Counted from the first letter of the stretch, positions 7,108 to 64,000 are shown. The stretch: 64,000 bases of DNA from Escherichia coli (GCF_044324875.1 NZ_CP172187.1); one strand, 5' to 3'. Notes: generated by a model from the sequence alone, not told the origin. Program-made: numbers and translations.

Positions 7108-7295
7108 TACAGGGGCAGGCGGTGGAGGCCGCCTGTCAGCCCGCGCGAAAACCCCTGGCAGGCTGACGCCTGCCGGAAGGGAAGCGGGCCACGCTGGCGC
7201 GTCGCCCGTTACCCTTCCCGTCTGTGATGTGTCTGACTCAGGAGTGTTTCTTTCTTATGTTGCGGAACTGTTCCTGATGTTGTTGTTGTTCCTTT

Positions 7296-7895
7296 ATCTG
7301 CTGCTCTGATTCTGACTACTGCAGTGTTGTTCTGTCTGCCGGGCGCACCTTCGGCTCCCGGCTGCCTGGCGGCATCCGGTCGTCAGGCCCGACTCCGACA
7401 GGCAGCTGCTGGCGCACCTGCCAGTCTCCGCCGAACCCGCTGGCGCGGCTTCGGGCTGCCGCTACGGTCCGATGCGTGAAAACCCCGGGCTTGCAGCGAC
7501 CGTTCTGGTCGCGCCGCCTCTGTCGCGCCGTGGCCTGCGCTCCAGGCATCCCGGCAAAAAGACGCCGGGATGTAAGGCGCAACGCCGTTTCGCAAACCGC
7601 GCTTCACGTCGTTGCTGCGGGTCCCTGCTCATTGCCTGCCGGGTGCCACACACCCGTATGAGTCCCTGTCGCCGGGGGCATAGACAGCCACAACCTGCCG
7701 CACTGACTGTCCAGGGTAAATGAACAGCCCACAAAATTTTTTACCCAAAACCCGGTAAAAAATTTTGCGTTCTGCCCAGGACAGGTGCGTCAGGCCGTGG
7801 CAGTGATGCCCCTTGCGGCGAAGGTTCTCAAACGGGTGAAGTTCATACCACAGGGAATACAGCAGCAGGTTCCCGCGAAACGTCAAAACCGCGGC
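7296..7895. repeat. Leading-region repeat family B, copy 1 (~600 bp, GC-rich); candidate Frpo/ssi-like single-strand promoter
   Basis: Shares ...CTGATTCTGACTACTGCAGTGTTGTTCTGTCTGCCGGGCGCACCTTCGGCTCCCGGCTGCC... through ...CGCGGCTCCCGAAACTCAAC with copies at 10651-11280 and 18720-19340. Confidence 0.8.
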
Positions 7896-8148
7896 TCCCG
7901 AAACTCAACGGGTGATGTTCTTTAAAAATCAGGATTTATTTCAGGCTCCGGCAATACGCATTTATGTGTTCTGTCAGTCATCCGGCTGGCAGGTAATGAG
8001 AACGCAGGAACAGAAGGAGGAAAACACCGGAGAACGTCAGACGCAGATATGAAAAAAGCAGGCCGGGGAGGACCTGCTTAATCCACACCGCAAAAACTGT
8101 TCGAGCAGTTTCTGCGGTTCCATTCAACAGTCATAAGGAGTTTCATTT

Positions 8149-10581: not shown

Positions 10582-10647
10582 CTGCTACTGCTACTGCTAC
10601 TGCTACTGCTACTGCTACTGCTACTGCTACTGCTACTGCTACTGCTC
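10582..10647. repeat. Hexanucleotide tandem repeat (CTGCTA)x11
   Basis: Eleven perfect units counted directly at the 5' edge of repeat B copy 2; the equivalent position in copies 1 and 3 is not expanded. Confidence 0.9.
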
Positions 10648-10650
10648 TTC

Positions 10651-11280
10651 TTTTTCCTGCTGCTCTGATTCTGACTACTGCAGTGTTGTTCTGTCTGCCG
10701 GGCGCACCTTCGGCTCCCGGCTGCCTGGCGGCATCCGGTCGTCAGGCCCGACTCCGACAGGCAGCTGCTGGCGCACCTGCCAGTCTCCGCCGAACCCGCT
10801 GGCGCGGTTTCGGGCTGCCGCTACGGTCCGATGCGTGAAAACCCGGCTTGCAGCGACCGTTCCGGTCGCGCCGCCCCTGTCGCGCCGTGACCTGCGCTCC
10901 AGGCATCCCGGCAAAAAGACGCCGGGATGTAAGGCGCAACGCCGTTTCGCAAACCGCGCTTCACGTCGTTGCGGCGGGTCCCTGCCCGTTGTTGTGTCCG
11001 GTGCCATTCACCTGTTTAAGCCCCTGTCGCCGGGGGCTGATACAGCCACAACCTGCCGCACTGACTGTCCAGGGTAAATGAACAGCCCACAAAATTTTTT
11101 ACCCAAAACCCGGTAAAAAATTTTGCGTTCTGCCCAGGACAGGTGCGTCAGGCCGTGGCAGTGATGCCCCATGCGGCGAAGGTTCTCAAACAGGTGATGG
11201 TGAATACCGGAGGGAACAAAGAGCAGGTCCCCGCAAAACGTCAAAACCGCGGCTCCCGAAACTCAACAGATGATGGGGGC
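10651..11280. repeat. Leading-region repeat family B, copy 2, directly upstream of ssb
   Basis: Direct sequence identity with copies 1 and 3; the 3' end ...CGAAACTCAACAGATGATGGGGGCTGAAAAC is shared exactly with copy 3. Confidence 0.8.
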
Positions 11281-11308
11281 TGAAAACATCAACAGAAGGA
11301 GACACATC

Positions 11309-11347
11309 ATGGCAGTTCGTGGCATTAACAAGGTCATTCTTGTCGGT
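11309..11347 (+). CDS. ssb: Plasmid single-stranded DNA-binding protein, exon 1 (codons 1-13, MAVRGINKVILVG)
   Basis: ATG with RBS AAGGAG; the 13 codons are the canonical SSB N-terminus; the reading frame is interrupted by GTGCG at 11348. Confidence 0.8.
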
Positions 11348-11960
11348 GTGCGCCGTTGAAGCGCGGTGTTTTATGGAGTGTTGCCTGAAAAGCAACATGG
11401 CTTAGTGGTATAGCCATTGCATACTGTGGTTAGCCTTGCTTGGTAACAGGCTCGGAGATCCTGAAAAGGAGAGGTGAACATAGCATCCACAGAAAAGGGT
11501 GGTGAATATGGAAATCGTTATAAGTATCACCATTCAATGCAAGATGTATATGGATAAACTGGGTTTGTTGAAGTCGAGATCTATGTGGGAAACAGGAAAC
11601 CAATAACGCAGAACGATTGAAGCGTTATTCCCGTACTAGCACAAGAAATCCGTCCGACGTTGATTGTGACCACTCTAACGGGCCAGCTATTGATGAAATA
11701 GTTAAACGATCGAAAGACATCCTAAGTACATCGCATCTCCACACCGTGAAACTACGGGACTACCTAAACTGGATTTATACCCAGCATGGTAGCGGAGTCT
11801 CCATAGTACTCAAGGTCGGCCTGTAATGGGTTCCGGCAGTCCGCATTATACGGAAGCAGCAAAGGTATAAATCAACCGGAAGGAAGATGAAAGCCTCACA
11901 GTGCTGCGGGGAAGGGAGACAGTTGTTAGATACATCAATCTCTAAGAGGAGGGTTAGCCA

Positions 11961-13862
11961 ATGCTGCCTGATGAACTTGAGAAAAGATTAGATGGAATTG
12001 AGGATGCTTCAAAAAAAGGGTATCCAGTACGTAATCTATACAAAATTGCGTGTGAGCCCGGACTGTGGCTGCAAGCCTACGTGAATATACGGGCCAATGC
12101 AGGTGCACTGACTCAAGGTGTATCAACAGATACCATTGATGGCTTTTCTATCGAAAGAGCAGAGAAGCTGGCAAAAACATTGCGGAGTAGAGAATACGTA
12201 GCGAAACCTGTACGCAGAGTTCAGATCCCAAAAAAGGACGGAAAAACCAGACCGCTGGGGATTCCAGGTGGAGACGATAAACTGGCGCAAGAAGTAGCAA
12301 GAATTATTCTGGAAAGGGTTTATGAACCAGTATTCTCTGAACACTCTCATGGATTCAGACCAAAACGTTCGTGTGAAACTGCGCTCAGATCTATTCGTCC
12401 AGTCTGGAACGGAGTTAAATGGATCGTGGATGTTGATATCAAAGGTTTCTTTGACAATATCCCCCACAAACTATTGCTGAATACACTGGCAGAGAAAATT
12501 AAGGATAAGAATTTCCTGAAATTAATCGAACAGTGGCTGAAGGCAGGATATGTGGACAATTGGAAATACCATCGCTCATATTCTGGCACGCCACAAGGTG
12601 GGATAATTTCTCCCTTACTGGCAAATATATACCTCGACAAACTGGACCGTTTTGTAGAACAGAATTTAATTCCTGCATATACAAGCGGTACAAAACGAAG
12701 AGCGAATCCAGATATGAACAGGCTGGCCCATAAGATTCATAAACTACGAAAGAAAGTAGACGGTATGGCAACTGATTCTGAATCAGAAAAAGAAGCCATA
12801 AAGAAAGAAATTGAACGACTGCTTGAAGAAAAACGTTCTATACCATCTCAGGTCATGAACGATCCAAACTTCAGGCGTATGTACTATGTTCGATATGCTG
12901 ATGACTTCGTAATCGGTGTCATCGGCTCGAAGAAAGATGCTGAACATATATCAAGACAGGTCAGAAACTTTATTACTACTTCACTGGGATTGGAAGTTAA
13001 TGAAGCAAAGACCAGGATCCGCCATATCTCAGAAGGAGTTAATTTTTTAGGCTATGAAATCAGACAGGCAGATGCAAAGAAATTGCTGAAGCAGAAAATG
13101 CAAGGGCGGCACGCTCTCCGGAGATCCACCACAGGAATTGTGCAGCTCTTCGTTCCTGACAATATAGCCGCTAAATTTTGTCACCAAAAGAAATATGGCT
13201 GTTATGAGAATGTGAAGGCTGTACATCGTTCAAGTCTACAAAATCTCAGTGAAGCTGAAATTGTTCTGACTTTCAACGCGGAAATGCGCGGATTGGCGAA
13301 CTACTACAGTCTGGCGCTGGACATGAAATATAAATTATCAAAATTATATTTCATATGGCAAATAAGCCTTTTTAAGACCCTGGCGAATAAACGACGTAGT
13401 TCAGTGAATAAAGTCGCCAAATCGCTACGGCAAAATAATGGAGATCTGGCTATTACCGTTCAGGCCAAAAATGGATCCCGAAAGATTGAGGTTTTCAAAC
13501 TCAAACATGTCAATCGCAACCGAACAACGATTGTCGATACGGAACCGAGAACCGCACATATCACAACCCGCACAACAGAGATCATGCGTCGATTAGGGGC
13601 AAGGATCTGCGAGTATTGTGCGAAGACTGGGCGCTGCGAAGTACATCATGTCAGAAAGCTAAAAGACCTGAAGAAAGGTCGTAAGGCCGGATATAAACCC
13701 AGCTTGTGGCAACTAATGATGATCGCACGCCGCCGGAAAACGATGATTTTGTGCGCAAGTTGCCACGACAAGTTACATAGCGGAAAACTACCCGATTTGA
13801 GACAGGAAAAGGGAAGAATACTCCTGCAACCACCTGTCTCAAGCGGGGATTCTGCTAAATGA
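11961..13862 (+). CDS. Group II intron-encoded protein: reverse transcriptase, maturase (X) and HNH endonuclease domains
   Basis: 633 aa with RT motifs (LGIPGGDDKLAQE, SHGFRPKRSCETAL, FFDNIPH, GTPQGGIISPLLANIYL, YVRYADDFVIGV) and a C-terminal Cys/His HNH-like cluster (CEYCAKTGRCEVHHV...CASCHDKLH). Confidence 0.9.
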   Translation: MLPDELEKRLDGIEDASKKGYPVRNLYKIACEPGLWLQAYVNIRANAGALTQGVSTDTIDGFSIERAEKLAKTLRSREYVAKPVRRVQIPKKDGKTRPLGIPGGDDKLAQEVARIILERVYEPVFSEHSHGFRPKRSCETALRSIRPVWNGVKWIVDVDIKGFFDNIPHKLLLNTLAEKIKDKNFLKLIEQWLKAGYVDNWKYHRSYSGTPQGGIISPLLANIYLDKLDRFVEQNLIPAYTSGTKRRANPDMNRLAHKIHKLRKKVDGMATDSESEKEAIKKEIERLLEEKRSIPSQVMNDPNFRRMYYVRYADDFVIGVIGSKKDAEHISRQVRNFITTSLGLEVNEAKTRIRHISEGVNFLGYEIRQADAKKLLKQKMQGRHALRRSTTGIVQLFVPDNIAAKFCHQKKYGCYENVKAVHRSSLQNLSEAEIVLTFNAEMRGLANYYSLALDMKYKLSKLYFIWQISLFKTLANKRRSSVNKVAKSLRQNNGDLAITVQAKNGSRKIEVFKLKHVNRNRTTIVDTEPRTAHITTRTTEIMRRLGARICEYCAKTGRCEVHHVRKLKDLKKGRKAGYKPSLWQLMMIARRRKTMILCASCHDKLHSGKLPDLRQEKGRILLQPPVSSGDSAK

Positions 13863-13888
13863 GTTTATCCCCAATAAGCTAGCAATGG

Positions 13889-13926
13889 AGAGCCGTATGC
13901 ACTGAAAGGTGCACGTACGGTTCGGA
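13889..13926 (+). ncRNA. Group II intron domain V (catalytic hairpin)
   Basis: Matches the conserved domain V consensus as I recall it (GAGCCGUAUGC...GCACGUACGGUUC), about 80 nt from the 3' splice site. Confidence 0.7.
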
Positions 13927-14008
13927 GGGGGGGTAACGGTGATCTAACTCAAGATAAGCAGGACATATTCGCCATTTATCTTGAAAGACCACACGTACCC
14001 TACCCTAC

Positions 14009-14497
14009 CGTCTGGGAAAAGATCCGGAAGTCCGTTACATCCCAAACGGGGGCGCAGTGGCAAACCTGCAGGTGGCCACGTCAGAAAGCTGGCGCGACAA
14101 ACAGACGGGGGAGATACGGGAGCAGACAGAATGGCATCGCGTGGTGCTGTTCGGCAAGCTCGCGGAAGTGGCTGGTGAGTATCTGCGCAAGGGCGCGCAG
14201 GTCTACATCGAAGGTCAGCTTCGCACCCGTAGCTGGGAGGATAACGGTATCACCCGTTACGTCACCGAAATTCTTGTTAAGACCACGGGCACCATGCAGA
14301 TGCTGGGACGTGCCGCAGGTACTCAGACTCAGCCGGAAGAGGCGCAACAGTTCAGCGGTCAGCCTCAGCCGGAATCACAGCCGGAACCGAAAAAAGGAGG
14401 CGCGAAAACGAAAGGCCGTGGACGTAAGGCCGCGCAGCCGGAGCCTCAGCAGCCGTCTGAACCCGCGTATGACTTCGATGACGACATTCCGTTCTAA
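14009..14497 (+). CDS. ssb: Plasmid single-stranded DNA-binding protein, exon 2
   Basis: In frame with ORF 14057..14497 ([19 protein letters not shown]...DDDIPF, acidic SSB tail); upstream in-frame codons [17 protein letters not shown] continue the SSB OB-fold. Confidence 0.8.
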
Positions 14498-16858: not shown

Positions 16859-17296
16859 GTGATGAAAACTGAACTGACCCTGAATGTCCTGCAGACCATG
16901 AACGCACAGGAATATGAAGATATCCGTGCTGCGGGAAGCGATATGCGCCGTAATCTCACTCACGAGGTGATGCGTAAAGTGGACGCACCGGCTAACTGGA
17001 TGATGAATGGCGAGTATGGCAGTGAGTTCGGGGGCTTTTTCCCCGTCCAGGTTCGTTTCACGCCAGCCCACGAACGTTTTCACCTGGCGTTATGTTCACC
17101 GGGCGATGTCTCTCAGGTCTGGGTGCTGGTTCTGGTGAATGCCGGTGGTGAGCCGTTTGCGGTGGTTCAGGTGCAGCGGCGGTTTGCACCGGAAGCTGTC
17201 AGCCATTCACTGGCACTGGCGGCGTCACTGGATGCGCAGGGGTACAGCGTTAACGACATCATTCATATCCTGATGGCGGAAGGAGGTCAGGCATGA
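16859..17296 (+). CDS. psiB: PsiB, plasmid SOS-inhibition protein
   Basis: 145 aa matching F-plasmid PsiB nearly end to end from memory ([25 protein letters not shown]...). Confidence 0.9.
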
Positions 17297-18012
17297 GCGC
17301 ACGTTCACAGGCACTGGTTCCTCTCAGCACAGAGCAACAGGCCGCATGGCGGGCGGTGGCGGAGACCGAAAAACGCCGCCATCAGGGTAACACGCTGGCT
17401 GAATATCCGTATGCGGGTGCGTTTTTCCGCTGTCTGAACGGAAGCCGCAGGATATCGCTGTCTGACCTGCGATTTTTCATGCCGTCCCTGACCGCAGAAG
17501 AACTGCACGGCAACCGTCTTCAGTGGCTGTATGCCATCGATGTGCTGATTGAAACACAGGGCGAGGTCTGCCTCCTTCCCCTTCCCGGTGATGCAGCAGA
17601 GCGCTTGTTCCCGTCGGTGCGGTTTCGTGTCAGGGAACGCAGTCGCCATAAATCCGCGCTGGTCATGCAGAAGTACAGCCGCCAGCAGGCGAGGGAGGCA
17701 GAGCAGAAAGCCCGTGCGTACCAGGCGCTGGTCGCTCAGGCTGAAATCGAACTGGCATTCCATTCGCCGGAAACAGTCGGAAGCTGGCATGCACGCTGGA
17801 GTGACCGGGTGGCAGAGCATGACCTGGAAACCCTGTTCTGGCAGTGGGGCGAGCGTTTTCCGTCACTGGCCGGAATGGAACGCTGGCAGTGGCAGGATAT
17901 GCCGTTCTGGCAGGTTATTGCGGAAGCCAGTCTTGCAGCAAGAGAGGCCGGTCACGCTGTCCGTGAGATGGAGCGGTGGATGGTGCCGAACAAACTCCGG
18001 GAGGCAGCGTGA
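17293..18012 (+). CDS. psiA: PsiA
   Basis: 239-aa ORF overlapping psiB by 4 nt in the canonical psiB-psiA arrangement; sequence consistent with F PsiA. Confidence 0.85.
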
Positions 18013-18199
18013 TGCGGCAACAATCACACGGATTTCCCGTGAACGGTCTGAATGAGCGGATTATTTTCAGGGAAAGTGAGTGTGGTCAGCGTGCAGGTAT
18101 ATGGGCTATGATGTGCCCGGCGCTTGAGGCTTTCTGCCTCATGACGTGAAGGTGGTTTGTTGCCGTGTTGTGTGGCAGAAAGAAGATAGCCCCGTAGTA

Positions 18200-18270
18200 A
18201 GTTAATTTTCATTAACCACCACGAGGCATCCCTATGTCTAGTCCACATCAGGATAGCCTCTTACCGCGCT
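18200..18270 (-). ncRNA. sok: Sok-type antisense RNA of the hok/mok/sok locus; approximate position
   Basis: Placed by analogy with type I hok/sok systems, where the antisense overlaps the mok start region; exact ends not determinable by eye. Confidence 0.35.
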
Positions 18271-18446
18271 TTGCGCAAGGAGAAGAAGGCCATGAAACTA
18301 CCACGAAGTTCCCTTGTCTGGTGTGTGTTGATCGTGTGTCTCACACTGTTGATATTCACTTATCTGACACGAAAATCGCTGTGCGAGATTCGTTACAGAG
18401 ACGGACACAGGGAGGTGGCGGCTTTCATGGCTTACGAATCCGGTAA
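18234..18446 (+). CDS. mok: Mok/FlmC-like overlapping reading frame that couples hok translation
   Basis: 70-aa ORF overlapping hok in a different frame. Confidence 0.55.
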
Positions 18447-18450
18447 GTAG
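18292..18450 (+). CDS. hok: Hok/FlmA type I toxin (52 aa)
   Basis: Hand translation: [52 protein letters not shown]; too short for the ORF track. Confidence 0.85.
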
Positions 18451-18719
18451 CAACCTGGAGGCGGGCGCAGGCCCGCCTTTTCAGGACTGATGCTGGTCTG
18501 ACTACTGAAGCGCCTTTATAAAGGGGCTGCTGGTTCGCCGGTAGCCCCTTTCTCCTTGCTGATGTTGTACGGGCATGAACAACCTGACTTCAGGAAGGTC
18601 GTTTCCCTTCAGGAACGGGGATGAACGCGCGCCTGCGGCGCCCGTTCTTTTCCCCCGCCTTCTCTGGTTATGGCCTGTCAGAAATCACATCACCTTCCCT
18701 GTGATTATTCTCTTTTTCT

Positions 18720-19340
18720 TCCTGCTCTGATTCTGACTACTGCAGTGTTGTCCTGTCTGCCGGCGCACCTTCGGCTCCCGGCTGCCTGGCGGCATCCGGT
18801 CGTCAGGCCCGACTCCGACAGGCAGCTGCTGGCGCACCTGCCAGTCTCCGCCGAACCCGCTGGCGCGGTTTCGGGCTGTCGCTACGGTCCGATGCGTGAA
18901 AACCCCGGGCTTGCAGCGACCGTTCCGGTCGCGCCGCCTCTGTCGCGCCGTGGCCTGCGCTCCTGGCATCCCGGCAAAAAGACGCCGGGATGTAAGGCGC
19001 AACGCCGTTTCGCAAACCGCGCTTCACGTCGTTGCTGCGGGTCCCTGCCCGTTGTTGTGTCCGGTGCCATTCACCTGTTTAAGCCCCTGTCGCCGGGGGC
19101 TGATACAGCCACAACCTGCCGCACTGACTGTCCAGGGTAAATGAACAGCCCACAAAATTTTTTACCCAAAACCCGGTAAAAAATTTTGCGTTCTGCCCAG
19201 GACAGGTGCGTCAGGCCGTGGCAGTGATGCCCCATGCGGCGAAGGTTCTCAAACAGGTGATGGTGAATACCGGAGGGAACAAAGAGCAGGTCCCCGCAAA
19301 ACGTCAAAACCGCGGCTCCCGAAACTCAACAGATGATGGG
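18720..19340. repeat. Leading-region repeat family B, copy 3
   Basis: Direct identity with copies 1 and 2; ends about 30 nt upstream of the ATG at 19371. Confidence 0.8.
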
Positions 19341-19370
19341 GGCTGAAAACCAGAGAGAGGAGAAAGCTGG

Positions 19371-21469: not shown

Positions 21470-21830
21470 TGGTGGTTCTCACCACCAAAAGCACCACACA
21501 CTACGCAAAAACAAGTTTTTGCTGATTTGCCACTTGAATCATTAACTTATGTTTTAAATAATGTATTTTAATTTATTTTACATTATAAAAAGGATTCATT
21601 GGTGAATCGCATATGATTCACCAATGAATTTAACACAACTCATAGATGAATCAGTAATAATAAAACAACGAGTTAAAGCGAATTGACTCTAGATTCAATT
21701 CGTGATGTGATTTGCTGCATGAATCGTAATTTTCGTAACTTGCGTCACGATTCGATTCATCGATGAATTGTCATTTTTTTATATGTGAAATAAATTTGAT
21801 GCGATAAGAAAATAAAGAGGTATACATATG
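21470..21830. other. oriT region; predicted nic site on the minus strand at about 21495/21496
   Basis: Minus strand reads ...TTTTTGCGTAGTGTGT|GGTGCTTTTGGTGGTGAG, the F-like nic consensus as I recall it; AT-rich with multiple inverted repeats (e.g. 21590-21630, 21690-21770) in the expected TraM/IHF/TraY binding zone upstream of traM. Confidence 0.7.
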
Positions 21831-22211: not shown

Positions 22212-22334
22212 AAAAGAATTAAAAGTTGATTTGCTTCAAATAACAGGATTTTGATCTGGTTCAATTTGATGACAATTAACCGCATAAAGGTTATATTAAT
22301 TACGTGGTTAATGCCACGTTAAAAATTGAAACTG

Positions 22335-22415
22335 AAAATCGCCGATGCAGGGAGTTCAGACCTCCCTGCATCGACTGTCCATAGAATCCTTAACGGAGGT
22401 TCCTATGTGTGCGCT
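22335..22415 (-). ncRNA. finP: FinP antisense RNA (approximate)
   Basis: Two stem-loops in the traJ leader: hairpin 22341-22378 and a second hairpin at about 22381-22410 whose loop holds the traJ Shine-Dalgarno (AACGGAGG) and whose stem holds the start codon. Confidence 0.5.
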
Positions 22416-43614: not shown

Positions 43615-46433
43615 ATGAAGTTTATGTGATTGCCGGTGGTGAGTGGTTGCGGAATAACCTGAATGCCATTGCCGCCTTTATGGGAACCAGAACGTGGGAT
43701 TCCATTGAAAAAATTGCGCTCACATTGTCTGTTCTCGCGGTGGCCGTAATGTGGGTACAGCGGCACAACGTGATGGATTTGCTGGGCTGGGTGGCCGTGT
43801 TTGTGCTTATCAGCCTGCTGGTTAATGTCCGTACATCGGTGCAGATTATTGATAACAGTGACCTGGTCAAAGTTCACCGGGTGGATAATGTGCCGGTCGG
43901 ACTGGCGATGCCACTTTCACTGACGACCCGTATCGGGCATGCAATGGTGGCCAGTTACGAGATGATCTTCACGCAACCGGACAGTGTCACCTACAGCAAA
44001 ACGGGGATGCTGTTTGGCGCAGAACTGGTATCAAAAAGCACCGACTTTTTGTCCCGTAATCCGGAAATCGCCAATCTTTTCCAGGATTATGTGCAGAACT
44101 GCGTGATGGGGGATATTTACCTGAACCACAAATATACGCTGGAGGAGCTGATGGCCTCCGCTGATCCCTACACGCTGATTTTTTCCCGCCCCAGCCCGCT
44201 GCGGGGCGTTTATGACAGCAATAATAATTTCGTAACCTGTAAGGACGCTTCGGTTTCGCTGAAAGACAAGCTGAATCTGGACACACAGAGTGGCGGAAAA
44301 ACCTGGCATTATTATGCCCAGCAGCTATTTGGCGGACGCCCTGATCCTAACCTGCTGTTCAGTACGCTGATTGGCGACAGTTACAGTTACTTCTATGGCT
44401 CAAGTAAATCAGCCAGCCAGATCATCCGCCAGAATGTCACCATCAATGCGCTGAAGGAGGGGATCACCAGTTATGCCGCACGTAATGGTGATTCGGCCAG
44501 CCTGGTGAATCTGGCCACCACGTCATCGATGGAGAAACAACGTCTGGCACATGTATCAATCGGTCATGTGGCGATGCGGACACTGCCCATGACGCAGACC
44601 ATCCTGACGGGGATCGCCATCGGTATTTTCCCGCTCCTGGTACTGGCGGCTGTATTCAACAAACTGACGCTGTCCGTCCTGAAAGGCTATGTGTTTGCCC
44701 TGATGTGGTTGCAGTCATGGCCAATGTTGTACGCCATTCTGAACAGCGCCATGACATTTTATGCAAAGCAGAATGGTGCACCGGTGGTGCTCTCGGAAAT
44801 TTCACAGATACAGCTGAAATACTCCGATCTGGCTTCCACTGCCGGGTATCTTTCCATGATGATCCCGCCATTATCCTGGATGATGGTCAGGGGGCTCGGG
44901 GCAGGATTTTCCAGTGTGTACAGCCATTTCGCTTCCTCTGCTATCAGCCCGACCGCCAGTGCAGCAGGCAGTGTGGTTGACGGTAATTACTCCTACGGCA
45001 ACATGCAGACGGAGAACGTGAACGGCTTCAGCTGGAGCACCAACAGCACCACGTCGTTTGGTCAGATGATGTACCAGACCGGCAGTGGCGCAACTGCCAC
45101 ACAGACCCGTGACGGTAATATGGTGATGGATGCAAGCGGAGCGATGTCCCGGTTACCGGTCGGCATCAATGCAACGCGTCAGATTGCGGCGGCACAACAG
45201 GAAATGGCCCGGGAAGCATCGAACAGAGCAGAAAGTGCCCTGCATGGGTTCAGCAGCAGTATTGCCAGTGCCTGGAACACGCTCAGTCAGTTTGGTTCTA
45301 ACCGGGGGAGCAGTGATTCTGTCACCGGTGGCGCTGACAGTACGATGAGCGCACAGGACTCCATGATGGCCAGCCGTATGCGCAGTGCAGTGGAAAGCTA
45401 TGCGAAGGCGCATAATATCAGTAATGAGCAGGCGACTCAGGAACTGGCATCCAGAAGTACGAGAGCTTCTGCCGGGATGTATGGAGATGCTCATGCTGAA
45501 TGGGGGGTTAAACCTAAAATTCTTGGTGTTGGTGGAGGATTAGGTGTTAAAGGTGGTGGTCGCGCTGGTATTGATTGGGAAGATAATGATGCGCATACGG
45601 CAAGTAGTAATACTCAGTCGAGCCATAATGCTCGTCATGATATCGATGCCAGAGCTACACAAGACTTTAAAGAGGCCAGCGATTACTTTACCAGTCGCAA
45701 GGTCAGTGAGTCCGGCAGCCATACTGACAATAATGCTGATTCCCGTGTGGATCAGTTGTCTGCAGCCCTGAACTCAGCAAAACAGAGTTACGACCAGTTC
45801 ACGACGAATATGACCCGCAGCCATGAATATGCTGAAATGGCATCCCGTACTGAAAGCATGAGTGGGCAGATGAGTGAAGACCTGTCGCAACAGTTTGCAC
45901 AGTATGTGATGAAACACGCGCCGCAGGATGCCGAAGCTATTCTGACAAACACCAGTTCACCGGAGATTGCAGAACGCCGTCGGGCTATGGCGTGGTCTTT
46001 TGTTCAGGAACAGGTGCAGCCTGGTGTTGATAATGCCTGGCGTGAATCCCGTGGGGACATCGGTAAAGGAATGGAGAGCGTACCTTCGGGTGGTGGCAGC
46101 CAGGATATTATTGCTGATCATCAGGGGCATCAGGCCATTATTGAGCAAAGAACGCAGGACAGTAATATCCGTAATGATGTAAAACATCAGGTTGATAATA
46201 TGGTCACAGAATACCGAGGCAATATCGGAGATACTCAGAGCAGCATACGTGGCGAAGAAAATATTGTAGGAAGACAGTATTCTGAACTACAAAATCACCA
46301 TAAAACAGAGGCATTATCTCAGAATAATAAATATAATGAAGAAAAATCGGGTCAGGAAAGAATGCCCGGGGCTGACAGTCCACAGGAACTGATGAAAAGA
46401 GCAAAGGAGTATCAGGATAAGCACAAGCAATAA
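43611..46433 (+). CDS. traG: TraG, mating-pair stabilisation and entry-exclusion determinant
   Basis: 940-aa polytopic membrane protein. Confidence 0.9.
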   Translation: MNEVYVIAGGEWLRNNLNAIAAFMGTRTWDSIEKIALTLSVLAVAVMWVQRHNVMDLLGWVAVFVLISLLVNVRTSVQIIDNSDLVKVHRVDNVPVGLAMPLSLTTRIGHAMVASYEMIFTQPDSVTYSKTGMLFGAELVSKSTDFLSRNPEIANLFQDYVQNCVMGDIYLNHKYTLEELMASADPYTLIFSRPSPLRGVYDSNNNFVTCKDASVSLKDKLNLDTQSGGKTWHYYAQQLFGGRPDPNLLFSTLIGDSYSYFYGSSKSASQIIRQNVTINALKEGITSYAARNGDSASLVNLATTSSMEKQRLAHVSIGHVAMRTLPMTQTILTGIAIGIFPLLVLAAVFNKLTLSVLKGYVFALMWLQSWPMLYAILNSAMTFYAKQNGAPVVLSEISQIQLKYSDLASTAGYLSMMIPPLSWMMVRGLGAGFSSVYSHFASSAISPTASAAGSVVDGNYSYGNMQTENVNGFSWSTNSTTSFGQMMYQTGSGATATQTRDGNMVMDASGAMSRLPVGINATRQIAAAQQEMAREASNRAESALHGFSSSIASAWNTLSQFGSNRGSSDSVTGGADSTMSAQDSMMASRMRSAVESYAKAHNISNEQATQELASRSTRASAGMYGDAHAEWGVKPKILGVGGGLGVKGGGRAGIDWEDNDAHTASSNTQSSHNARHDIDARATQDFKEASDYFTSRKVSESGSHTDNNADSRVDQLSAALNSAKQSYDQFTTNMTRSHEYAEMASRTESMSGQMSEDLSQQFAQYVMKHAPQDAEAILTNTSSPEIAERRRAMAWSFVQEQVQPGVDNAWRESRGDIGKGMESVPSGGGSQDIIADHQGHQAIIEQRTQDSNIRNDVKHQVDNMVTEYRGNIGDTQSSIRGEENIVGRQYSELQNHHKTEALSQNNKYNEEKSGQERMPGADSPQELMKRAKEYQDKHKQ

Positions 46434-53546: not shown

Positions 53547-56500
53547 TGTTGAGTTTTAGCGTTGTTAAATCGGCAGGCAGTGCCGGAAACTATTACACCG
53601 ACAAGGATAATTACTATGTGCTGGGTAGCATGGGAGAACGCTGGGCCGGTCAGGGGGCTGAACAGCTTGGGCTGCAGGGCAGCGTCGATAAGGATGTTTT
53701 TACCCGTCTTCTGGAGGGCAGGCTGCCGGACGGGGCGGATTTAAGCCGCATGCAGGATGGCAGTAATAAGCATCGTCCCGGCTACGACCTGACCTTCTCC
53801 GCCCCCAAAAGTGTCTCCATGATGGCCATGCTCGGGGGGGATAAACGTCTTATTGATGCACATAACCAGGCTGTGGATTTTGCTGTCCGTCAGGTGGAGG
53901 CGCTGGCTTCCACACGGGTGATGACGGACGGACAGTCAGAAACGGTGCTGACCGGTAATCTGGTGATGGCACTGTTTAACCATGACACCAGTCGCGATCA
54001 GGACCCACAGTTACACACGCATGTGGTGGTGGCTAATGTCACGCAGCATAACGGCGAGTGGAAGACACTGAGCAGTGACAAAGTGGGGAAAACCGGATTT
54101 TCCGAGAACGTGCTCGCGAACCGGATTGCGTTCGGGAAAATATATCAGAGTGAGTTACGTCAGCGCGTTGAGGCGCTGGGTTATGAAACCGAAGTGGTCG
54201 GTAAGCACGGTATGTGGGAGATGCCGGGCGTACCGGTGGAGGCCTTTTCCGGACGCTCACAGGCTATCCGGGAGGCCGTCGGGGAAGATGCCTCGCTGAA
54301 ATCCCGGGATGTGGCGGCACTGGATACGCGAAAATCCAAACAGCACGTCGATCCGGAAATCAGAATGGCTGAATGGATGCAGACGCTGAAGGAAACCGGG
54401 TTCGACATCCGGGCATATCGTGACGCGGCGGATCAGCGTGCGGAGACCCGCACGCAGGCGCCCGGGGCTGTTTCACAGGAGGGGCCGGATGTGCAGCAGG
54501 CGGTGACACAGGCCATTGCCGGATTAAGTGAACGAAAAGTGCAGTTCACGTATACGGACGTGCTGGCCAGGACGGTCGGCATACTGCCGCCGGAAAATGG
54601 TGTGATTGAACGGGCACGCGCCGGTATCGATGAGGCCATCAGCCGTGAGCAGCTTGTCCCCCTCGATCGTGAGAAGGGGCTGTTCACGTCCGGGATTCAT
54701 GTGCTCGATGAGCTGTCAGTCCGGGCACTCAGTCGTGACATCATGAAACAGAACCGGGTGACCGTACATCCGGAGAAAAGTGTCCCCCGGACGGCCGGTT
54801 ACAGCGATGCCGTCAGTGTTCTGGCACAGGATCGCCCGTCGCTGGCCATTGTGTCCGGGCAGGGCGGTGCAGCCGGGCAGCGTGAGCGGGTGGCTGAACT
54901 GGTCATGATGGCCCGGGAGCAGGGGCGGGAGGTGCAGATTATCGCTGCTGACCGTCGCTCGCAGATGAACCTGAAGCAGGATGAACGGCTGTCCGGTGAG
55001 CTGATAACCGGACGTCGTCAGCTGCAGGAGGGCATGGTCTTCACGCCGGGCAGTACCGTTATCGTTGACCAGGGCGAAAAACTCTCCCTGAAAGAGACGT
55101 TAACCCTGCTGGACGGTGCCGCACGTCATAACGTACAGGTCCTGATAACCGACAGCGGGCAGCGAACCGGTACAGGCAGTGCGCTGATGGCCATGAAGGA
55201 TGCCGGGGTGAACACGTATCGCTGGCAGGGCGGAGAACAGCGACCGGCCACCATCATCAGTGAACCGGACCGGAATGTCCGCTATGACCGGCTGGCCGGA
55301 GATTTTGCGGCCAGCGTGAAAGCCGGAGAAGAGAGCGTGGCACAGGTCAGCGGGGTACGGGAACAGGCCATACTGACACAGGCCATTCGCAGTGAGCTGA
55401 AAACACAGGGCGTGCTCGGACACCCGGAGGTGACCATGACCGCCCTGTCACCGGTCTGGCTGGACAGCCGGAGCCGTTATCTGCGGGATATGTACCGACC
55501 GGGGATGGTGATGGAGCAGTGGAACCCGGAGACACGCAGTCATGACCGCTATGTTATCGACCGGGTGACGGCGCAGAGTCACAGCCTGACCCTGCGGGAT
55601 GCGCAGGGCGAAACGCAGGTGGTGCGTATTTCCTCCCTGGACAGCAGCTGGTCGCTGTTCCGGCCGGAAAAAATGCCGGTGGCAGACGGCGAGCGACTGA
55701 GGGTGACAGGGAAAATTCCCGGACTCCGCGTCTCCGGCGGTGACCGCCTGCAGGTGGCATCCGTCAGTGAAGATGCGATGACGGTTGTTGTGCCGGGGCG
55801 GGCTGAACCGGCCACCCTGCCTGTGGCTGATTCACCGTTCACGGCACTGAAGCTGGAGAACGGCTGGGTGGAAACGCCCGGGCATTCCGTCAGCGACAGT
55901 GCGAAGGTTTTTGCCTCCGTCACACAGATGGCAATGGACAACGCCACCCTGAACGGTCTGGCCCGCAGTGGTCGTGATGTCCGGCTGTATTCTTCACTGG
56001 ATGAAACCCGTACTGCGGAAAAACTTGCCCGCCATCCCTCCTTTACGGTGGTTTCTGAGCAGATAAAGGCGCGTGCCGGTGAGACATTGCTGGAAACCGC
56101 TATCAGTCTGCAGAAAGCCGGGCTTCACACGCCGGCACAGCAGGCTATTCATCTGGCCCTTCCTGTGCTGGAAAGTAAAAACCTGGCCTTCAGCATGGTG
56201 GACCTGCTGACAGAGGCGAAGTCGTTTGCTGCAGAAGGAACCAGTTTTACTGAACTGGGAGGGGAAATCAATGCGCAGATAAAACGCGGTGATTTACTGT
56301 ATGTGGATGTGGCAAAAGGCTATGGCACAGGCCTGCTGGTTTCCCGTGCGTCGTATGAGGCAGAAAAGAGCATTCTTCGCCATATTCTCGAAGGTAAGGA
56401 GGCGGTCACGCCGCTGATGGAGAGAGTACCTGGCGAACTCATGGAGAAACTGACATCAGGACAGCGTGCCGCCACCCGCATGATACTGGAAACGTCCGAC

Positions 56501-60327: not shown

Positions 60328-60540
60328 ATGAATGGATTCAGAAACAGTTCACGGAACGGTCAGGTCTGGCGCTGGCAGCGTGCCGGAAGCCGGGCCGTTA
60401 TTCTGGAGGTCAGTGGACGCTGGATGGAAGCGGCAGAAGCATGGCGACGGGCTGCCGGTGTTGCACCCCGGACAGACTGGCAGCAGTTTGCCCGAAAAAG
60501 GGCTGAACAATGCCACCGACGCTGCCGGGGAAGGGTGTAA
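60328..60540 (+). CDS. Hypothetical small Arg/Trp-rich protein
   Basis: Short ORF; could be spurious. Confidence 0.3.
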   Translation: MNGFRNSSRNGQVWRWQRAGSRAVILEVSGRWMEAAEAWRRAAGVAPRTDWQQFARKRAEQCHRRCRGRV

Positions 60541-60787
60541 CGAAAAAGCAGCCTTCATTACTCCAGGGATTCAGAAGGCTGAATAATGCATGAGATTTGC
60601 TTTTTTTAATATCCGGTCGGGCAGTATGACCGGACAGTTCTGAGTAGCACAGAGTTTTTTCCGTATTAAGTCGTGATTTTATATTTTGTGATTAATTTCG
60701 CAAAATAAGGTGTTATTCAGTGTGTGCTGCGATATTCAGGATTACCTGAAATACAGGTGCCATTTATCTGATATGGAGAATAATATG

Positions 60788-61538: not shown

Positions 61539-62129
61539 ATGAAGTTGATTATTTTTATTCTCATTGTTCTGATTATTGCAGCGTTACTTATCCGGATTAT
61601 CCTCAGAAGTGTAAATCAGCATTCTCCTTTGCTGATGCAGTTACATGCGGCAGGTATACGGACCGGTGATGCAGAGCGAATACTGTCCGGCGGTGAATAC
61701 TGGCAACGTCAGAAGACGCTGCTGACAGAAAGGGAAGTCAGTTTTATGAAAGGACTGTTCAGAATTGTGGATATGAAGCGGTGGTATCTGTGTCCGCAGG
61801 TACGGGTCGCGGATATCGTCCAGCTGAACGGGAATATCCGGCCACGATCACGCCAGTGGTGGCAGTTATTCAGGATGGTGTCTCAGTGGCATGTTGATGT
61901 GGTTATCGTTGAGCAGCGTTCGTTCAGTATTGTTGCAGCAGTAGAGCTGGATGATGCCAGCCATTTACGACCGGAACGCAGACGCCGGGATATTCTTCTG
62001 GAAGAGGTTCTGAGGCAGGCTGGTATTCCGTTGCTCAGAAGCCACGATGCCAGAAAACTGCTGCAGATGACCGGAGAATGGCTGAATACAACAGGGGCTG
62101 ATCAGCAGTCCCCGGAACATCGTAGCTGA
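61539..62129 (+). CDS. Membrane-anchored protein, possibly DUF2726-like
   Basis: 196 aa with N-terminal TM helix; family assignment from memory and uncertain. Confidence 0.5.
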   Translation: MKLIIFILIVLIIAALLIRIILRSVNQHSPLLMQLHAAGIRTGDAERILSGGEYWQRQKTLLTEREVSFMKGLFRIVDMKRWYLCPQVRVADIVQLNGNIRPRSRQWWQLFRMVSQWHVDVVIVEQRSFSIVAAVELDDASHLRPERRRRDILLEEVLRQAGIPLLRSHDARKLLQMTGEWLNTTGADQQSPEHRS

Positions 62130-62283
62130 CGCCTTCGCGTTGCTCAGTTGTCCAACCCCGGAAACGGGAAAAAGCAAGTTTTCCCCGCTCCCGGCGTTTC
62201 CGTAATAAAAAACGGGAAATGGTGGTCACAGAATAAATTCCGGAACTACCTGTACCCAAACTTTATATAATAAAGGTGAATAT

Positions 62284-62733
62284 ATGGAATATGATGATGT
62301 ATCAGAATTGATGATTAAGCGTGAACACAATATTCTTATTGTTGGGAATTCTGCCTCCCACATTGATAAGTTTTTTAAGGAGTATTCTATACCAAGTTCT
62401 AAATATTATGATTTCACTCAGATTAACAGTGATTCAGATGTAGAGAGAAATGAGAATGCTGTCTCTTTTATCAGGGATGCAATGAATAGTGAAGAGCTCA
62501 CAATCATTTTTAATTGCGTTGGGTGGCCTGATTTAGGTGGTGGAGCAGCAGTATCACAGTTTGCAATGATGGCCAGAAAATTTGGTAAACAACTTATTGT
62601 CGCTGTAAGTGAAAAGGATGCCATCAAATTAAAAGACAACTTTGATATTATTGGGATGTTGTCATATGGTAAAGAAAATTTTATTGCCATGAGTCATACG
62701 AAAAGCGAGTTAACTGGAGGGAAACGTCGGTAA
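62284..62733 (+). CDS. Hypothetical protein (149 aa), markedly AT-rich
   Basis: ORF with RBS AAAGGTG; Rossmann-like pattern (ILIVGNS...IIFNCVGWPDLGGGAA). Confidence 0.5.
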   Translation: MEYDDVSELMIKREHNILIVGNSASHIDKFFKEYSIPSSKYYDFTQINSDSDVERNENAVSFIRDAMNSEELTIIFNCVGWPDLGGGAAVSQFAMMARKFGKQLIVAVSEKDAIKLKDNFDIIGMLSYGKENFIAMSHTKSELTGGKRR

Positions 62734-62947
62734 CGGATTAAAAATAGATGTAAATAAAAAGCATACTTATTGGCTGGAGTGACGCCTTCGTGCTTCGGTA
62801 GTAAAAAACGGGAAATGAAGGTAATAGTCAGCAACAGGGAATGTGGTATTATCGCGGCGGGTGTCTGAGCCTTTCTGGTTCAGGCAAGACGCAGGTACCA
62901 GAAATGCGAAGACCCCACTTGTTAATCCATTAACTCGTGAGGTCTGC

Positions 62948-63154
62948 ATGAAGTACTTGAACACTACTGATTGTAGCCTCTTCCTTGCAGAGAGGTCAAA
63001 GTTTATGACGAAATATGCCCTTATCGGGTTGCTCGCCGTGTGCGCCACGGTGTTGTGTTTTTCACTGATATTCAGGGAACGGTTATGTGAACTGAATATT
63101 CACAGGGGAAATACAGTGGTGCAGGTAACTCTGGCCTACGAAGCACGGAAGTAA
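62948..63154 (+). CDS. SrnB' leader reading frame (mok analogue)
   Basis: ATG at 62948 (MKYLNTTD...) in frame with srnB. Confidence 0.5.
   Translation: MKYLNTTDCSLFLAERSKFMTKYALIGLLAVCATVLCFSLIFRERLCELNIHRGNTVVQVTLAYEARK
63005..63154 (+). CDS. srnB: SrnB/PndA-type Hok-family toxin (49 aa)
   Basis: MTKYALIGLLAVCATVLCFSLIFRERLCELNIHRGNTVVQVTLAYEARK. Confidence 0.85.
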   Translation: MTKYALIGLLAVCATVLCFSLIFRERLCELNIHRGNTVVQVTLAYEARK

Positions 63155-63437
63155 GCTGCCGGGCGGGGACGGAAGTCCCCGCTTTCCGGGAGTGTGAGGT
63201 ATTTCAGGGGCAGACACCCTACACGTCAGAAACCGCCGGTCCCGCCCGGGGCCGGCACACAGGTTAAGGCATTTCCTGTTTTTCAGCCATTTCGCAACAA
63301 AATTCACACTAAACGACAGTAATCCCCGTTGATTTGTGCGCCAACACAGATCTTCGTCACAATTCTCAAGTCGCTGATTTCAAAAAACTGTAGTATCCTC
63401 TGCGAAACGATCCCTGTTTGAGTATTGAGGAGGCGGG

Positions 63438-63698
63438 ATGTCGCAGATCGAAAATGCAGTAACTTCCTCACCGAAACGCATTTACAGAAAAGGTAATCCG
63501 TTAACCGGAGCCGAGAAACAACGTATATCTGTTTCCCGGAAAAAGGGGACACATAAAGCGATTAATGTTTTCATCCAGAGTGAACTCAAAGATGATTTGA
63601 CACAGCTTTGTAAAGATTCGGGCTTAACTCAAAAAGAAATGATAGAGCACTGGATTTTGAAAGAAAAAGCTGCGATGGATAATGCGAATAGAAGGTAA
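63438..63698 (+). CDS. copB: CopB/RepA2 repressor of the RepFIIA replicon
   Basis: 86-aa basic protein resembling IncFII CopB from memory (MSQ.ENAVTSS...). Confidence 0.75.
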   Translation: MSQIENAVTSSPKRIYRKGNPLTGAEKQRISVSRKKGTHKAINVFIQSELKDDLTQLCKDSGLTQKEMIEHWILKEKAAMDNANRR

Positions 63699-63933
63699 CT
63701 AAGTTACTTTCTTGAACATTTGAATTGCGGATGCTAGATTACTGATCGTTTAAGGAATTTTGTGGCTGGCCACGCCGTAAGGTGGCAGGGAACTGGTTCT
63801 GATGTGGATTTACAGGAGCCAGAAAAGTGAAAACCCCGATAATCTTCAGCAAGTTTGGCGACTAAGAGAAGATTAACGGGGCCATCTAAAAACCGTATAG
63901 CCAACAATTCAGCTATGCGGGGAGTATAGTTAT

Positions 63934-64000
63934 ATGCCCGGAAAAGTTCAAGACTTCTTTCTGTGCTCGCTCCTTCTGCGCATTGTAAGTGCAGGATGGT
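63934..64000 (+). CDS. Leader peptide (tap/repA6-like) preceding repA1; truncated by the window end
   Basis: ATG at 63934 ([22 protein letters not shown]...), about 235 nt downstream of copB, where the CopA/CopT region is expected. Confidence 0.4.

Follow-up and report, generated by a model that had tools for sequence, protein, structure and literature searches.

The 64,000-nt stretch of DNA analysed here, hereafter the window, comes from an F-like conjugative plasmid of Escherichia coli and carries two Hok-family loci, hok/mok/sok in the leading region, where Frpo elements in direct repeat flank it, and srnB beside the IncFII replicon. Both very probably are functional hok-type type I toxin-antitoxin modules that act by post-segregational killing, each independently of the other. 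This call rests mainly on identity to loci whose mechanism has been demonstrated experimentally, and transcription, processing, antisense control and killing are expected at both loci on the strength of that identity. As the original prediction held, both toxin reading frames (18292-18450 and 63005-63154) translate without interruption, and the product of each scores above the Pfam gathering threshold. A tblastn search of the window in all six frames with both toxins returned these two loci only (next best E 0.087), so that a candidate third Hok-family gene in the 64 kb is set aside.

The span originally given for the leading-region locus, 18200 to 18450, lies inside it but takes in only its middle. 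The unit begins with the hok promoter (18083) and reaches as far as the fbi element and the terminator-like hairpin at about 18516-18556. For the full-length hok mRNA a length of about 398 nt is assumed, which we take from the literature of the Gerdes laboratory. The parts of the locus are as follows.

18083 to 18112 (+), hok mRNA promoter, TGGTCA and TATGAT with an 18-nt spacer, from the promoter scan; it places +1 at 18119
18119 to 18516 (+), full-length hok mRNA, about 398 nt; +1 checked against the numbering of PMC9841398
18119 to 18128 (+), tac element at the 5' end of the hok mRNA, from its minimum free energy (MFE) pairing with fbi
18188 to 18193 (+), ucb or anti-Shine-Dalgarno box sequestering the mok Shine-Dalgarno (SD) sequence; 18190-18193 pair with 18226-18223 in the fold
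18223 to 18226 (+), mok SD sequence GAGG, from the sequence; includes G105 and A106 of PMC9841398
18292 to 18450 (+), hok toxin reading frame, with the SD sequence AAGGAG at 18277-18282; from the reading frame and profile matches
18250 to 18278 (-), sok promoter, -35 TTGCGC at 18278-18273, 17-nt spacer, -10 TATCCT at 18255-18250, read from the sequence
18179 to 18245 (-), Sok antisense RNA, ends approximate, from its fold; complementary to the mok translation-initiation region
18458 to 18479 (+), 3' hairpin just past the stop codon, forming the end of the truncated hok mRNA (about 361 nt) that processing leaves, from the fold
18505 to 18514 (+), fbi (fold-back inhibitory) element, pairing with 18119-18128
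18520 to 18556 (+), terminator-like hairpin 3' of fbi (AAAGGGGCUGC...GGUAGCCCCUUUCUCC), read from the sequence

The hok reading frame encodes 52 amino acids, and its product scores 76.5 bits against Pfam HOK_GEF (PF01848; gathering cut-off 22, E 1.2e-21) and 126.4 against the NCBIfam Hok subfamily model NF007279 (cut-off 73). All seven of the conserved Hok-family residues are present (M1, C16, T18, L30, C31, E32 and E41), these being conserved in more than 80% of the peptides rather than invariant (preprint 10.1101/2025.08.07.668861). Overlapping hok out of frame is mok (18234-18446, +), which encodes 70 amino acids behind its own SD sequence, GAGG, and matches both the NCBIfam equivalog 'modulator of post-segregation killing protein' (PRK13720; 151.6 bits, cut-off 110, E 5.2e-45) and Pfam DUF5431 (E 2.6e-41).

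With +1 set at 18119, eleven published positions of R1 hok agree with the window (G4, C5, T6, A70, G71, C72, G105, A106, T204, G311 and C358), among them the mok anti-Shine-Dalgarno A70 G71 C72 (PMC9841398). One published position, C345 (PMC9841398), disagrees with this mapping, as 18463 is a G. Substitutions in the stem-loop at 18458-18479, the last of the truncated mRNA, are reported to abolish that mRNA, and the hairpin at 18520-18556 may be the source of the second full-length isoform mentioned in the same paper (PMC9841398). Folding of the 398-nt RNA (18119-18516) gives a minimum free energy of -175.9 kcal/mol, with a z-score of -7.45 against dinucleotide shuffles, and in this structure tac and fbi pair with one another (18119-18125 with 18514-18508, and 18127-18128 with 18506-18505). 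On the opposite strand, Sok is predicted to fold into one long hairpin between a single-stranded 5' tail of about 14 nt and a U-rich 3' tail (-26.5 kcal/mol, z -6.38, none of 200 shuffles as stable). The sok promoter agrees with the consensus at 8 of 12 positions and was not picked up by the promoter scan at its threshold of 9 of 12; it is assigned because it is identical to that of R1.

Indeed, the whole locus bears out its original identification as hok/mok/sok, since the DNA from 18010 to 18600 is 100% identical to parB of plasmid R1 (591 of 591 nt against NZ_KY749247). The identical stretch includes the promoters, tac, ucb, mok, hok, the Sok region, the 3' hairpin and fbi; there is no difference within the locus, and the Hok and Mok proteins of the two plasmids are the same. 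In R1 the locus also occupies the same place, between psiA and an Frpo1-type leading-region element. The backbone is mosaic relative to R1: nic is of the R100 type here (GCGTAGTGTGT/GG, the slash marking the nick), whereas the reference oriT judged to be that of R1 has the F-type GCGTGGGGTGT/GG. The flm locus of F shares both the place (psiB, psiA, flm, Frpo1, ygeA, and onward to oriT) and the architecture, and a three-way alignment of F, R1 and the window has a mean column identity of 96%. FlmA has Y39 where the toxin here has H39 (H39Y, the sole residue change), and the region of F complementary to Sok/FlmB differs by several substitutions and two small deletions of 3 and 2 nt. The window therefore carries the R1 allele and not the F allele.

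Turning to the second locus, its parts are as follows.

62825 to 62852 (+), srnB mRNA promoter, TAGTCA and TATTAT with a 16-nt spacer and a TG extended -10, from the promoter scan
62859 to 63222 (+), srnB mRNA, ends approximate; the Rfam leader match starts at 62859
62859 to 62867 (+), tac-equivalent 5' element GGGUGUCUG, from MFE pairing with 63219-63211
62948 to 63154 (+), srnB leader reading frame, 68 amino acids, with the SD sequence GAGG at 62939-62942; from the reading frame and the Rfam alignment
63005 to 63154 (+), srnB' toxin reading frame, 49 amino acids, from the reading frame and Pfam
62970 to 62999 (-), srnC promoter, TTGACC and TACAAT with an 18-nt spacer, 10 of 12 consensus positions, from the promoter scan
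62897 to 62963 (-), SrnC antisense RNA, ends approximate, from a fold with a 14-nt single-stranded 5' tail and a long hairpin
63161 to 63184 (+), 3' hairpin past the srnB' stop codon, equivalent to the hairpin that ends the truncated hok mRNA, from the fold
63211 to 63219 (+), fbi-equivalent element CAGACACCC, pairing with 62867-62859

The srnB' toxin, MTKYALIGLLAVCATVLCFSLIFRERLCELNIHRGNTVVQVTLAYEARK, is above the cut-off of Pfam HOK_GEF (37.3 bits against 22, E 2.1e-9) but below that of the NCBIfam subfamily model NF007279 (32.9 against 73), and it is therefore a member of the family that lies outside that subfamily model. It has equivalents of six of the conserved residues (M1, C13, T15, L27, C28 and E29), with V38 where Hok has E41. 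The leader reading frame shares the frame of the toxin, which mok does not, and its SD sequence and AUG stand opposite those of mok in the Rfam alignment. The mRNA folds with a minimum free energy of -155.1 kcal/mol (z -6.22), and SrnC with -20.9 kcal/mol (z -3.23, none of 200 shuffles as stable).

The original identification of this locus as srnB also proves correct. The 49-amino-acid toxin and the 68-amino-acid leader product are identical to those of F, and the transcript DNA (62859-63222) is identical at 358 of 364 nt (98.4%), with four changes in the coding region that are all synonymous. The toxin is annotated as WP_001312851.1 in both F and pTB-nb3. Two substitutions relative to F, at 62957 and 62959, fall in the 5' tail of SrnC and in its target, so that SrnC here is an allelic variant of that of F. 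Similarity to F starts at 62829-62830, inside the -35 hexamer of srnB, and falls to 35% left of 62829, where the two plasmids have unrelated flanks. Since the unrelated flank reaches up to this recombination junction, the -35 itself differs (TAGTCA here, TATTAA in F). In place of the other sequence found in F, the flank here holds an orphan reading frame of 149 amino acids that has no match in Pfam, NCBIfam, PADLOC or PDB sequences.

Several structural features are common to both loci. In the MFE folds of both mRNAs the leader SD sequence pairs with an upstream box, and tac and fbi, or their equivalents, form 9 and 10 end pairs at the two loci. When the leaders are put in register by the Rfam model, the tac/fbi helices of hok and srnB differ at three pairs that have changed on both sides with pairing kept (C-G to U-A twice, U-A to C-G once). 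The Gerdes group is said to have established the structure of hok-type mRNAs from covariation of this kind. End pairing by itself is weak evidence, because 18 and 16 of the 150 dinucleotide shuffles made of each RNA (12% and 11%) also show at least 7 such pairs. For the truncated RNAs (361 nt for hok, 328 nt for srnB), the MFE structure frees the 5' end from fbi and the leader SD sequence stays paired; the published open form is absent from these MFE structures, with the mok SD still paired to ucb.

The Rfam model RF01794, named 'sok', matches at 18118-18294 and 62859-63015 with 88.9 and 93.5 bits (threshold 59). Both matches lie on the plus strand, in the sense of the toxin, and the end of the model falls in the toxin AUG, which means that the model describes the mRNA leader and not the antisense RNA; on the minus strand there is no match to it even at E<=1. 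The matches were therefore rejected as evidence for Sok or SrnC and are used here for leader homology only. At the DNA level blastn finds no similarity between hok and srnB at E<=1e-3, so the relationship between them is visible only in the proteins and in the covariance model.

The mechanism of hok/sok is summarized in PMC9841398 and PMC4147584, and flm, srnB-srnC and pnd share its arrangement and regulation (PMC4147584, PMC9841398). For R1 hok/sok and F srnB, post-segregational killing, induction by rifampicin and cleavage of the RNA duplex by RNase III are known from the literature. The scheme below was established for R1 hok/sok and is carried over to both loci by identity. A weak promoter would give rise to a very stable, highly folded toxin mRNA in which tac pairs with fbi and the upstream box occludes the SD sequence of the leader reading frame, mok or the 68-amino-acid frame of srnB, so that the full-length RNA would escape both translation and binding by the antisense RNA. 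Slow trimming of the 3' end to the hairpin past the stop codon would then free the 5' end, and refolding would expose the translation-initiation region of the leader. As long as cells bear the plasmid, abundant and unstable Sok or SrnC, transcribed from a convergent promoter that is the stronger one and lies within the leader, would bind this region through the single-stranded 5' tail and RNase III would cut the duplex. Upon plasmid loss the antisense RNA would decay first, allowing the leader frame to be translated and, by coupling, the toxin, a small membrane peptide that would kill the cell. The membrane-damaging toxicity expected of Hok and SrnB' likewise draws on their identity to R1 Hok and F SrnB.

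The surroundings of the two loci are given by the following features.

17293 to 18012 (+), psiA, left neighbour of the hok locus; Pfam PsiA 8.5e-39, NCBIfam PRK13704 4.8e-127
18704 to 19353 (+), copy 3 of the Frpo-type single-strand-promoter repeat, from repeat families D1, D2 and D4 and the F alignment
21490 to 21501 (-), oriT nic region GTGTGT/GGTGCT, with the nick between 21496 and 21495, from the motif and the oriT alignment
63438 to 63698 (+), copB (repA2) of the IncFII replicon, right neighbour of srnB; Pfam RepB-RCR_reg 2.2e-47
63825 to 63916 (-), CopA RNA, 99.7 bits

The placement of hok between psiA and an element that the original prediction called 'repeat-B' is borne out by the Pfam and NCBIfam matches of psiA and by the repeat itself, a sequence of about 650 nt of which the window holds three copies (7284-7932, 10643-11290 and 18704-19353). 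Copies 2 and 3 stand 8,063 bp apart as direct repeats and share 98% identity over 300 nt. The third aligns with the region of F upstream of ygeA and the second with that upstream of ssb, regions that are the single-strand promoters Frpo1 and Frpo2 respectively (Couturier et al., PMC9849209), which identifies 'repeat-B' as an Frpo-type element.

At 21501-21490 the minus strand carries the R100-type nic sequence, GCGTAGTGTGT/GGTGC; the 181 nt in which it lies share 98% identity with a reference oriT region that was judged to come from R1. The exact motif has no match in the reference F and oriT sequences because these carry the GGGGTGT variant. The position of the nick within the motif is presumed from established knowledge of the TraI of F and R100. 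From the strand of nic it follows that the minus strand is transferred and that entry proceeds toward lower coordinates. The distance from nic to hok is about 3.0-3.2 kb, with gene X, a DUF932 gene and a ygeA-like reading frame of 95 amino acids coming before it, and the template strand of hok is the one that reaches the recipient first; the claim that hok is among the first genes to enter a recipient is a fair one. The location of srnB near the replicon holds as well, with copB 284 nt downstream both here and in F and with CopA RNA also found.

Why hok/sok should sit between Frpo repeats is the biological question that this arrangement touches, and a guard against deletion and a role in establishment are the candidate answers. 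It is conceivable, though doubtful, that the leading-region copy is kept mainly for such a position-specific role, in which it would guard the Frpo-flanked ssb, psiB and psiA genes from recombinational deletion, aid establishment, or both. This role is compatible with killing, to which it would add without replacing it. The location of hok between the near-identical direct repeats at 10643-11290 and 18704-19353 fits the idea, and the same safeguarding has been proposed for flm between Frpo1 and Frpo2 of F (Couturier et al., PMC9849209). Toxin-antitoxin genes are moreover over-represented in leading regions, where they are encoded on the T-strand (PMC11541004), and a preprint from 2025-26 reports the same for hok/Sok. 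However, if one of several plasmid copies suffered a deletion, killing would not be released before segregation. Position also appears unneeded for function, since parB of R1 reportedly stabilises unrelated replicons wherever it is cloned, a finding attributed to Gerdes in 1988.

A second possibility is that the loci are chiefly abortive-infection (phage-exclusion) devices, in which the shut-off of transcription by a phage depletes the antisense RNA and so releases the toxin. That a block of transcription activates srnB and pnd is indicated by the title of Nielsen 1991, which describes them as rifampicin-inducible. No PADLOC defence model matches either toxin, however, and the neighbouring genes serve plasmid maintenance and transfer rather than forming defence islands. 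The phage effect on record, a lowering of T4 plating by hok/sok that Pecota and Wood are said to have observed in 1996, is modest. As the chief function of the loci phage exclusion is unlikely, while as a side effect it is possible.

The strand that is transferred would allow a further role for hok, as a checkpoint on establishment. The minus strand that enters is the template for hok mRNA and not for Sok, and no strong plus-strand terminator is predicted between the Frpo2-type promoter (10643-11290) and hok. Since only the hok-sense template enters, read-through from 10643-11290 might produce toxin mRNA ahead of any template for Sok. Recipients whose restriction or CRISPR systems block or destroy the entering DNA ahead of complementary-strand synthesis would then be left with stable hok mRNA but no Sok, and die. 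Such a checkpoint is quite improbable; if true, it would retaliate against the defences of the recipient, a function separate from post-segregational killing in its classical form.

Relics of the kind seen in many chromosomal hok copies, translatable but silent in killing and regulation, are very improbable for either locus or for both. Chromosomal hokA to hokE of E. coli share the toxin family and the leader architecture, and copies among them are reported to lack post-segregational killing; the relevant passage of preprint 10.1101/2025.08.07.668861, which cites Pedersen and Gerdes 1999, names hokA, hokB and hokC. At srnB, the replacement of the upstream flank up to the -35 hexamer could be read in the same direction. 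Against this, what occurs here are plasmid alleles, identical to ones that are active. The hok locus matches R1 parB at every base, and srnB retains the extended -10, tac, fbi, both SD sequences and an srnC promoter with 10 of 12 consensus positions, its proteins being the same as in F. Neither an IS element nor a frameshift is present, and the confinement of the coding changes relative to F to synonymous ones points to purifying selection on srnB.

The reading of the two loci as working modules that act independently of each other is consistent with the predicted pairing of their antisense RNAs. For the first 20 nt of Sok and SrnC the cognate duplexes have energies of -38.2 and -32.7 kcal/mol, and the non-cognate ones energies of -15.0 and -10.0 kcal/mol. 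The single-stranded 5' tails that serve in recognition are unrelated, and each antisense RNA should therefore neutralise only its own mRNA. Cross-talk, in which Sok and SrnC would each silence the other toxin too and the pair would form one redundant system with loss buffered, is scarcely credible: the loci are homologous, one Rfam model matches both leaders and the antisense hairpin loops have a common GUUAAUG...AUUAAC core, but the 5' tails are unrelated, the non-cognate energies are about a third of the cognate ones, five chromosomal Sok RNAs did not inhibit R1 hok (PMC9841398) and both families are stably carried by F. Two addiction modules that probably are non-redundant and do not neutralise one another would be relevant to strategies for curing the plasmid.

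As a pair, hok and srnB are already known, and their arrangement is a textbook and ordinary one, because F carries this pair in these two places as well. A flm/hok locus together with srnB has been known on F-like plasmids since about 1990. The related pndA/pndB/pndC genes of R483 and R16, which according to the literature belong to the same family and follow the same regulatory scheme, do not occur in the window; its toxins are not Pnd alleles, and that of srnB' is identical to SrnB of F.

By a near-identity DNA search in which each locus was counted separately, 3160 of 5426 complete E. coli genomes (58%) contain DNA of the hok locus, with 4275 of its 4324 places on plasmids and 49 chromosomal. 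For srnB-locus DNA the corresponding counts are 2004 of 5426 genomes (37%), with 2185 of 2216 places on plasmids and 31 chromosomal, and in PLSDB at least 5000 records matched for each locus. This wide spread counts in favour of working modules. Both loci are among the commonest plasmid genes in E. coli and matter little as a discovery. The value of the analysis lies instead in annotation, as the true extent and strand of every regulatory element are now fixed. Three pitfalls in databases are worth noting: the Rfam 'sok' model sits on the sense strand, annotation of the PGAP type shortens Hok to 41 amino acids, and an antisense 'hypothetical protein' is probably spurious.

The leading-region hok/mok/sok locus is 100% identical to that of R1, although an R100-type nic region lies only 3 kb away:

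21490-21501, - strand: nic region, R100-type, GCGTAGTGTGT/GGTGC

In contrast, both the related plasmid pLH50-c-D and the fetched reference oriT, which was judged to be that of R1, carry the F-type nic, GCGTGGGGTGT/GGTGC. Judged from sequence, the proximity of an R100-type nic to an R1 hok locus indicates that the plasmid backbone is mosaic.

The leading region also contains Frpo-type repeats, which are single-strand-promoter elements, and an interrupted ssb gene:

7284-7932: Frpo-type repeat, copy 1
10643-11290: Frpo-type repeat, copy 2
18704-19353: Frpo-type repeat, copy 3
11309-14497: split leading-region ssb
11349-14008: intron within ssb
11961-13862: ltrA ORF

Whereas two such elements (Frpo1 and Frpo2) have been described on plasmid F, the window holds three, and the homology among its copies reaches about 200 nt further left than that between F's own two. 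Copies 2 and 3, which share 98% identity across 300 nt, are direct repeats on either side of ssb, psiB, psiA and hok. The element interrupting ssb after codon 13 is a sense-oriented group II intron. Its 5' end reads GTGCG, it contains a 633-aa RT/maturase ORF, and Rfam RF00029 matches it at 13888-14008. In pLH50-c-D, ssb is uninterrupted and its sequence is the exact join of the window's two exons (GTCGGT/CGTCTGGG). Since the intron begins approximately 60 nt downstream of a Frpo2-type single-strand promoter, splicing would be required for early ssb expression in recipients.

At the second Hok-family locus, srnB, homology to F breaks at 62828, inside the -35 hexamer, coinciding with the right edge of an orphan ORF:

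62284-62733, + strand: 149-aa ORF, approximately 35% GC, between a DUF2726 gene and srnB

Searches of Pfam, NCBIfam, PADLOC and PDB sequences gave no match to this ORF, which is listed for pTB-nb3 as a "hypothetical protein" (WP_053287837.1). At least 80% of 61800-64000 was covered in just 263 of the best 5000 records. Relative to F srnB, substitutions at 62957 and 62959 are synonymous in the leader ORF and lie where the antisense RNA SrnC is predicted to have its single-stranded 5' recognition tail. The SrnC/target pair is therefore allelic relative to that of F, and may not be fully interchangeable with it.

Both toxin loci are matched by the Rfam family RF01794 ("sok antitoxin"):

18118-18294, + strand: RF01794 match
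62859-63015, + strand: RF01794 match

Since the family covers the toxin-sense strand between the mRNA start (+1) and the AUG of the toxin, it describes the hok/srnB mRNA leader and not the antisense RNA; automated annotation by RF01794 would assign "sok" to the incorrect strand.

In its public annotation, the near-identical plasmid pLH50-c-D has two calls at hok:

18325-18450, + strand (7126-7251 in fetched locus L001): Hok
18024-18212, - strand (L001 6825-7013): 62-aa "hypothetical protein"

The former is a 41-aa Hok from GTG 18325, versus 52 aa from ATG 18292. The latter is on the strand opposite to hok, spanning the hok promoter and the end of the antisense RNA Sok, and is probably spurious.

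Further Rfam matches are the traJ 5' UTR/FinP pair and four antisense RNAs originally described from plasmid pHK01:

8053-8154, - strand: AS-pc01
44330-44415, - strand: AS-traG
56395-56471, - strand: AS-traI
60437-60620, - strand: AS-pc02
22302-22411: traJ 5' UTR/FinP pair
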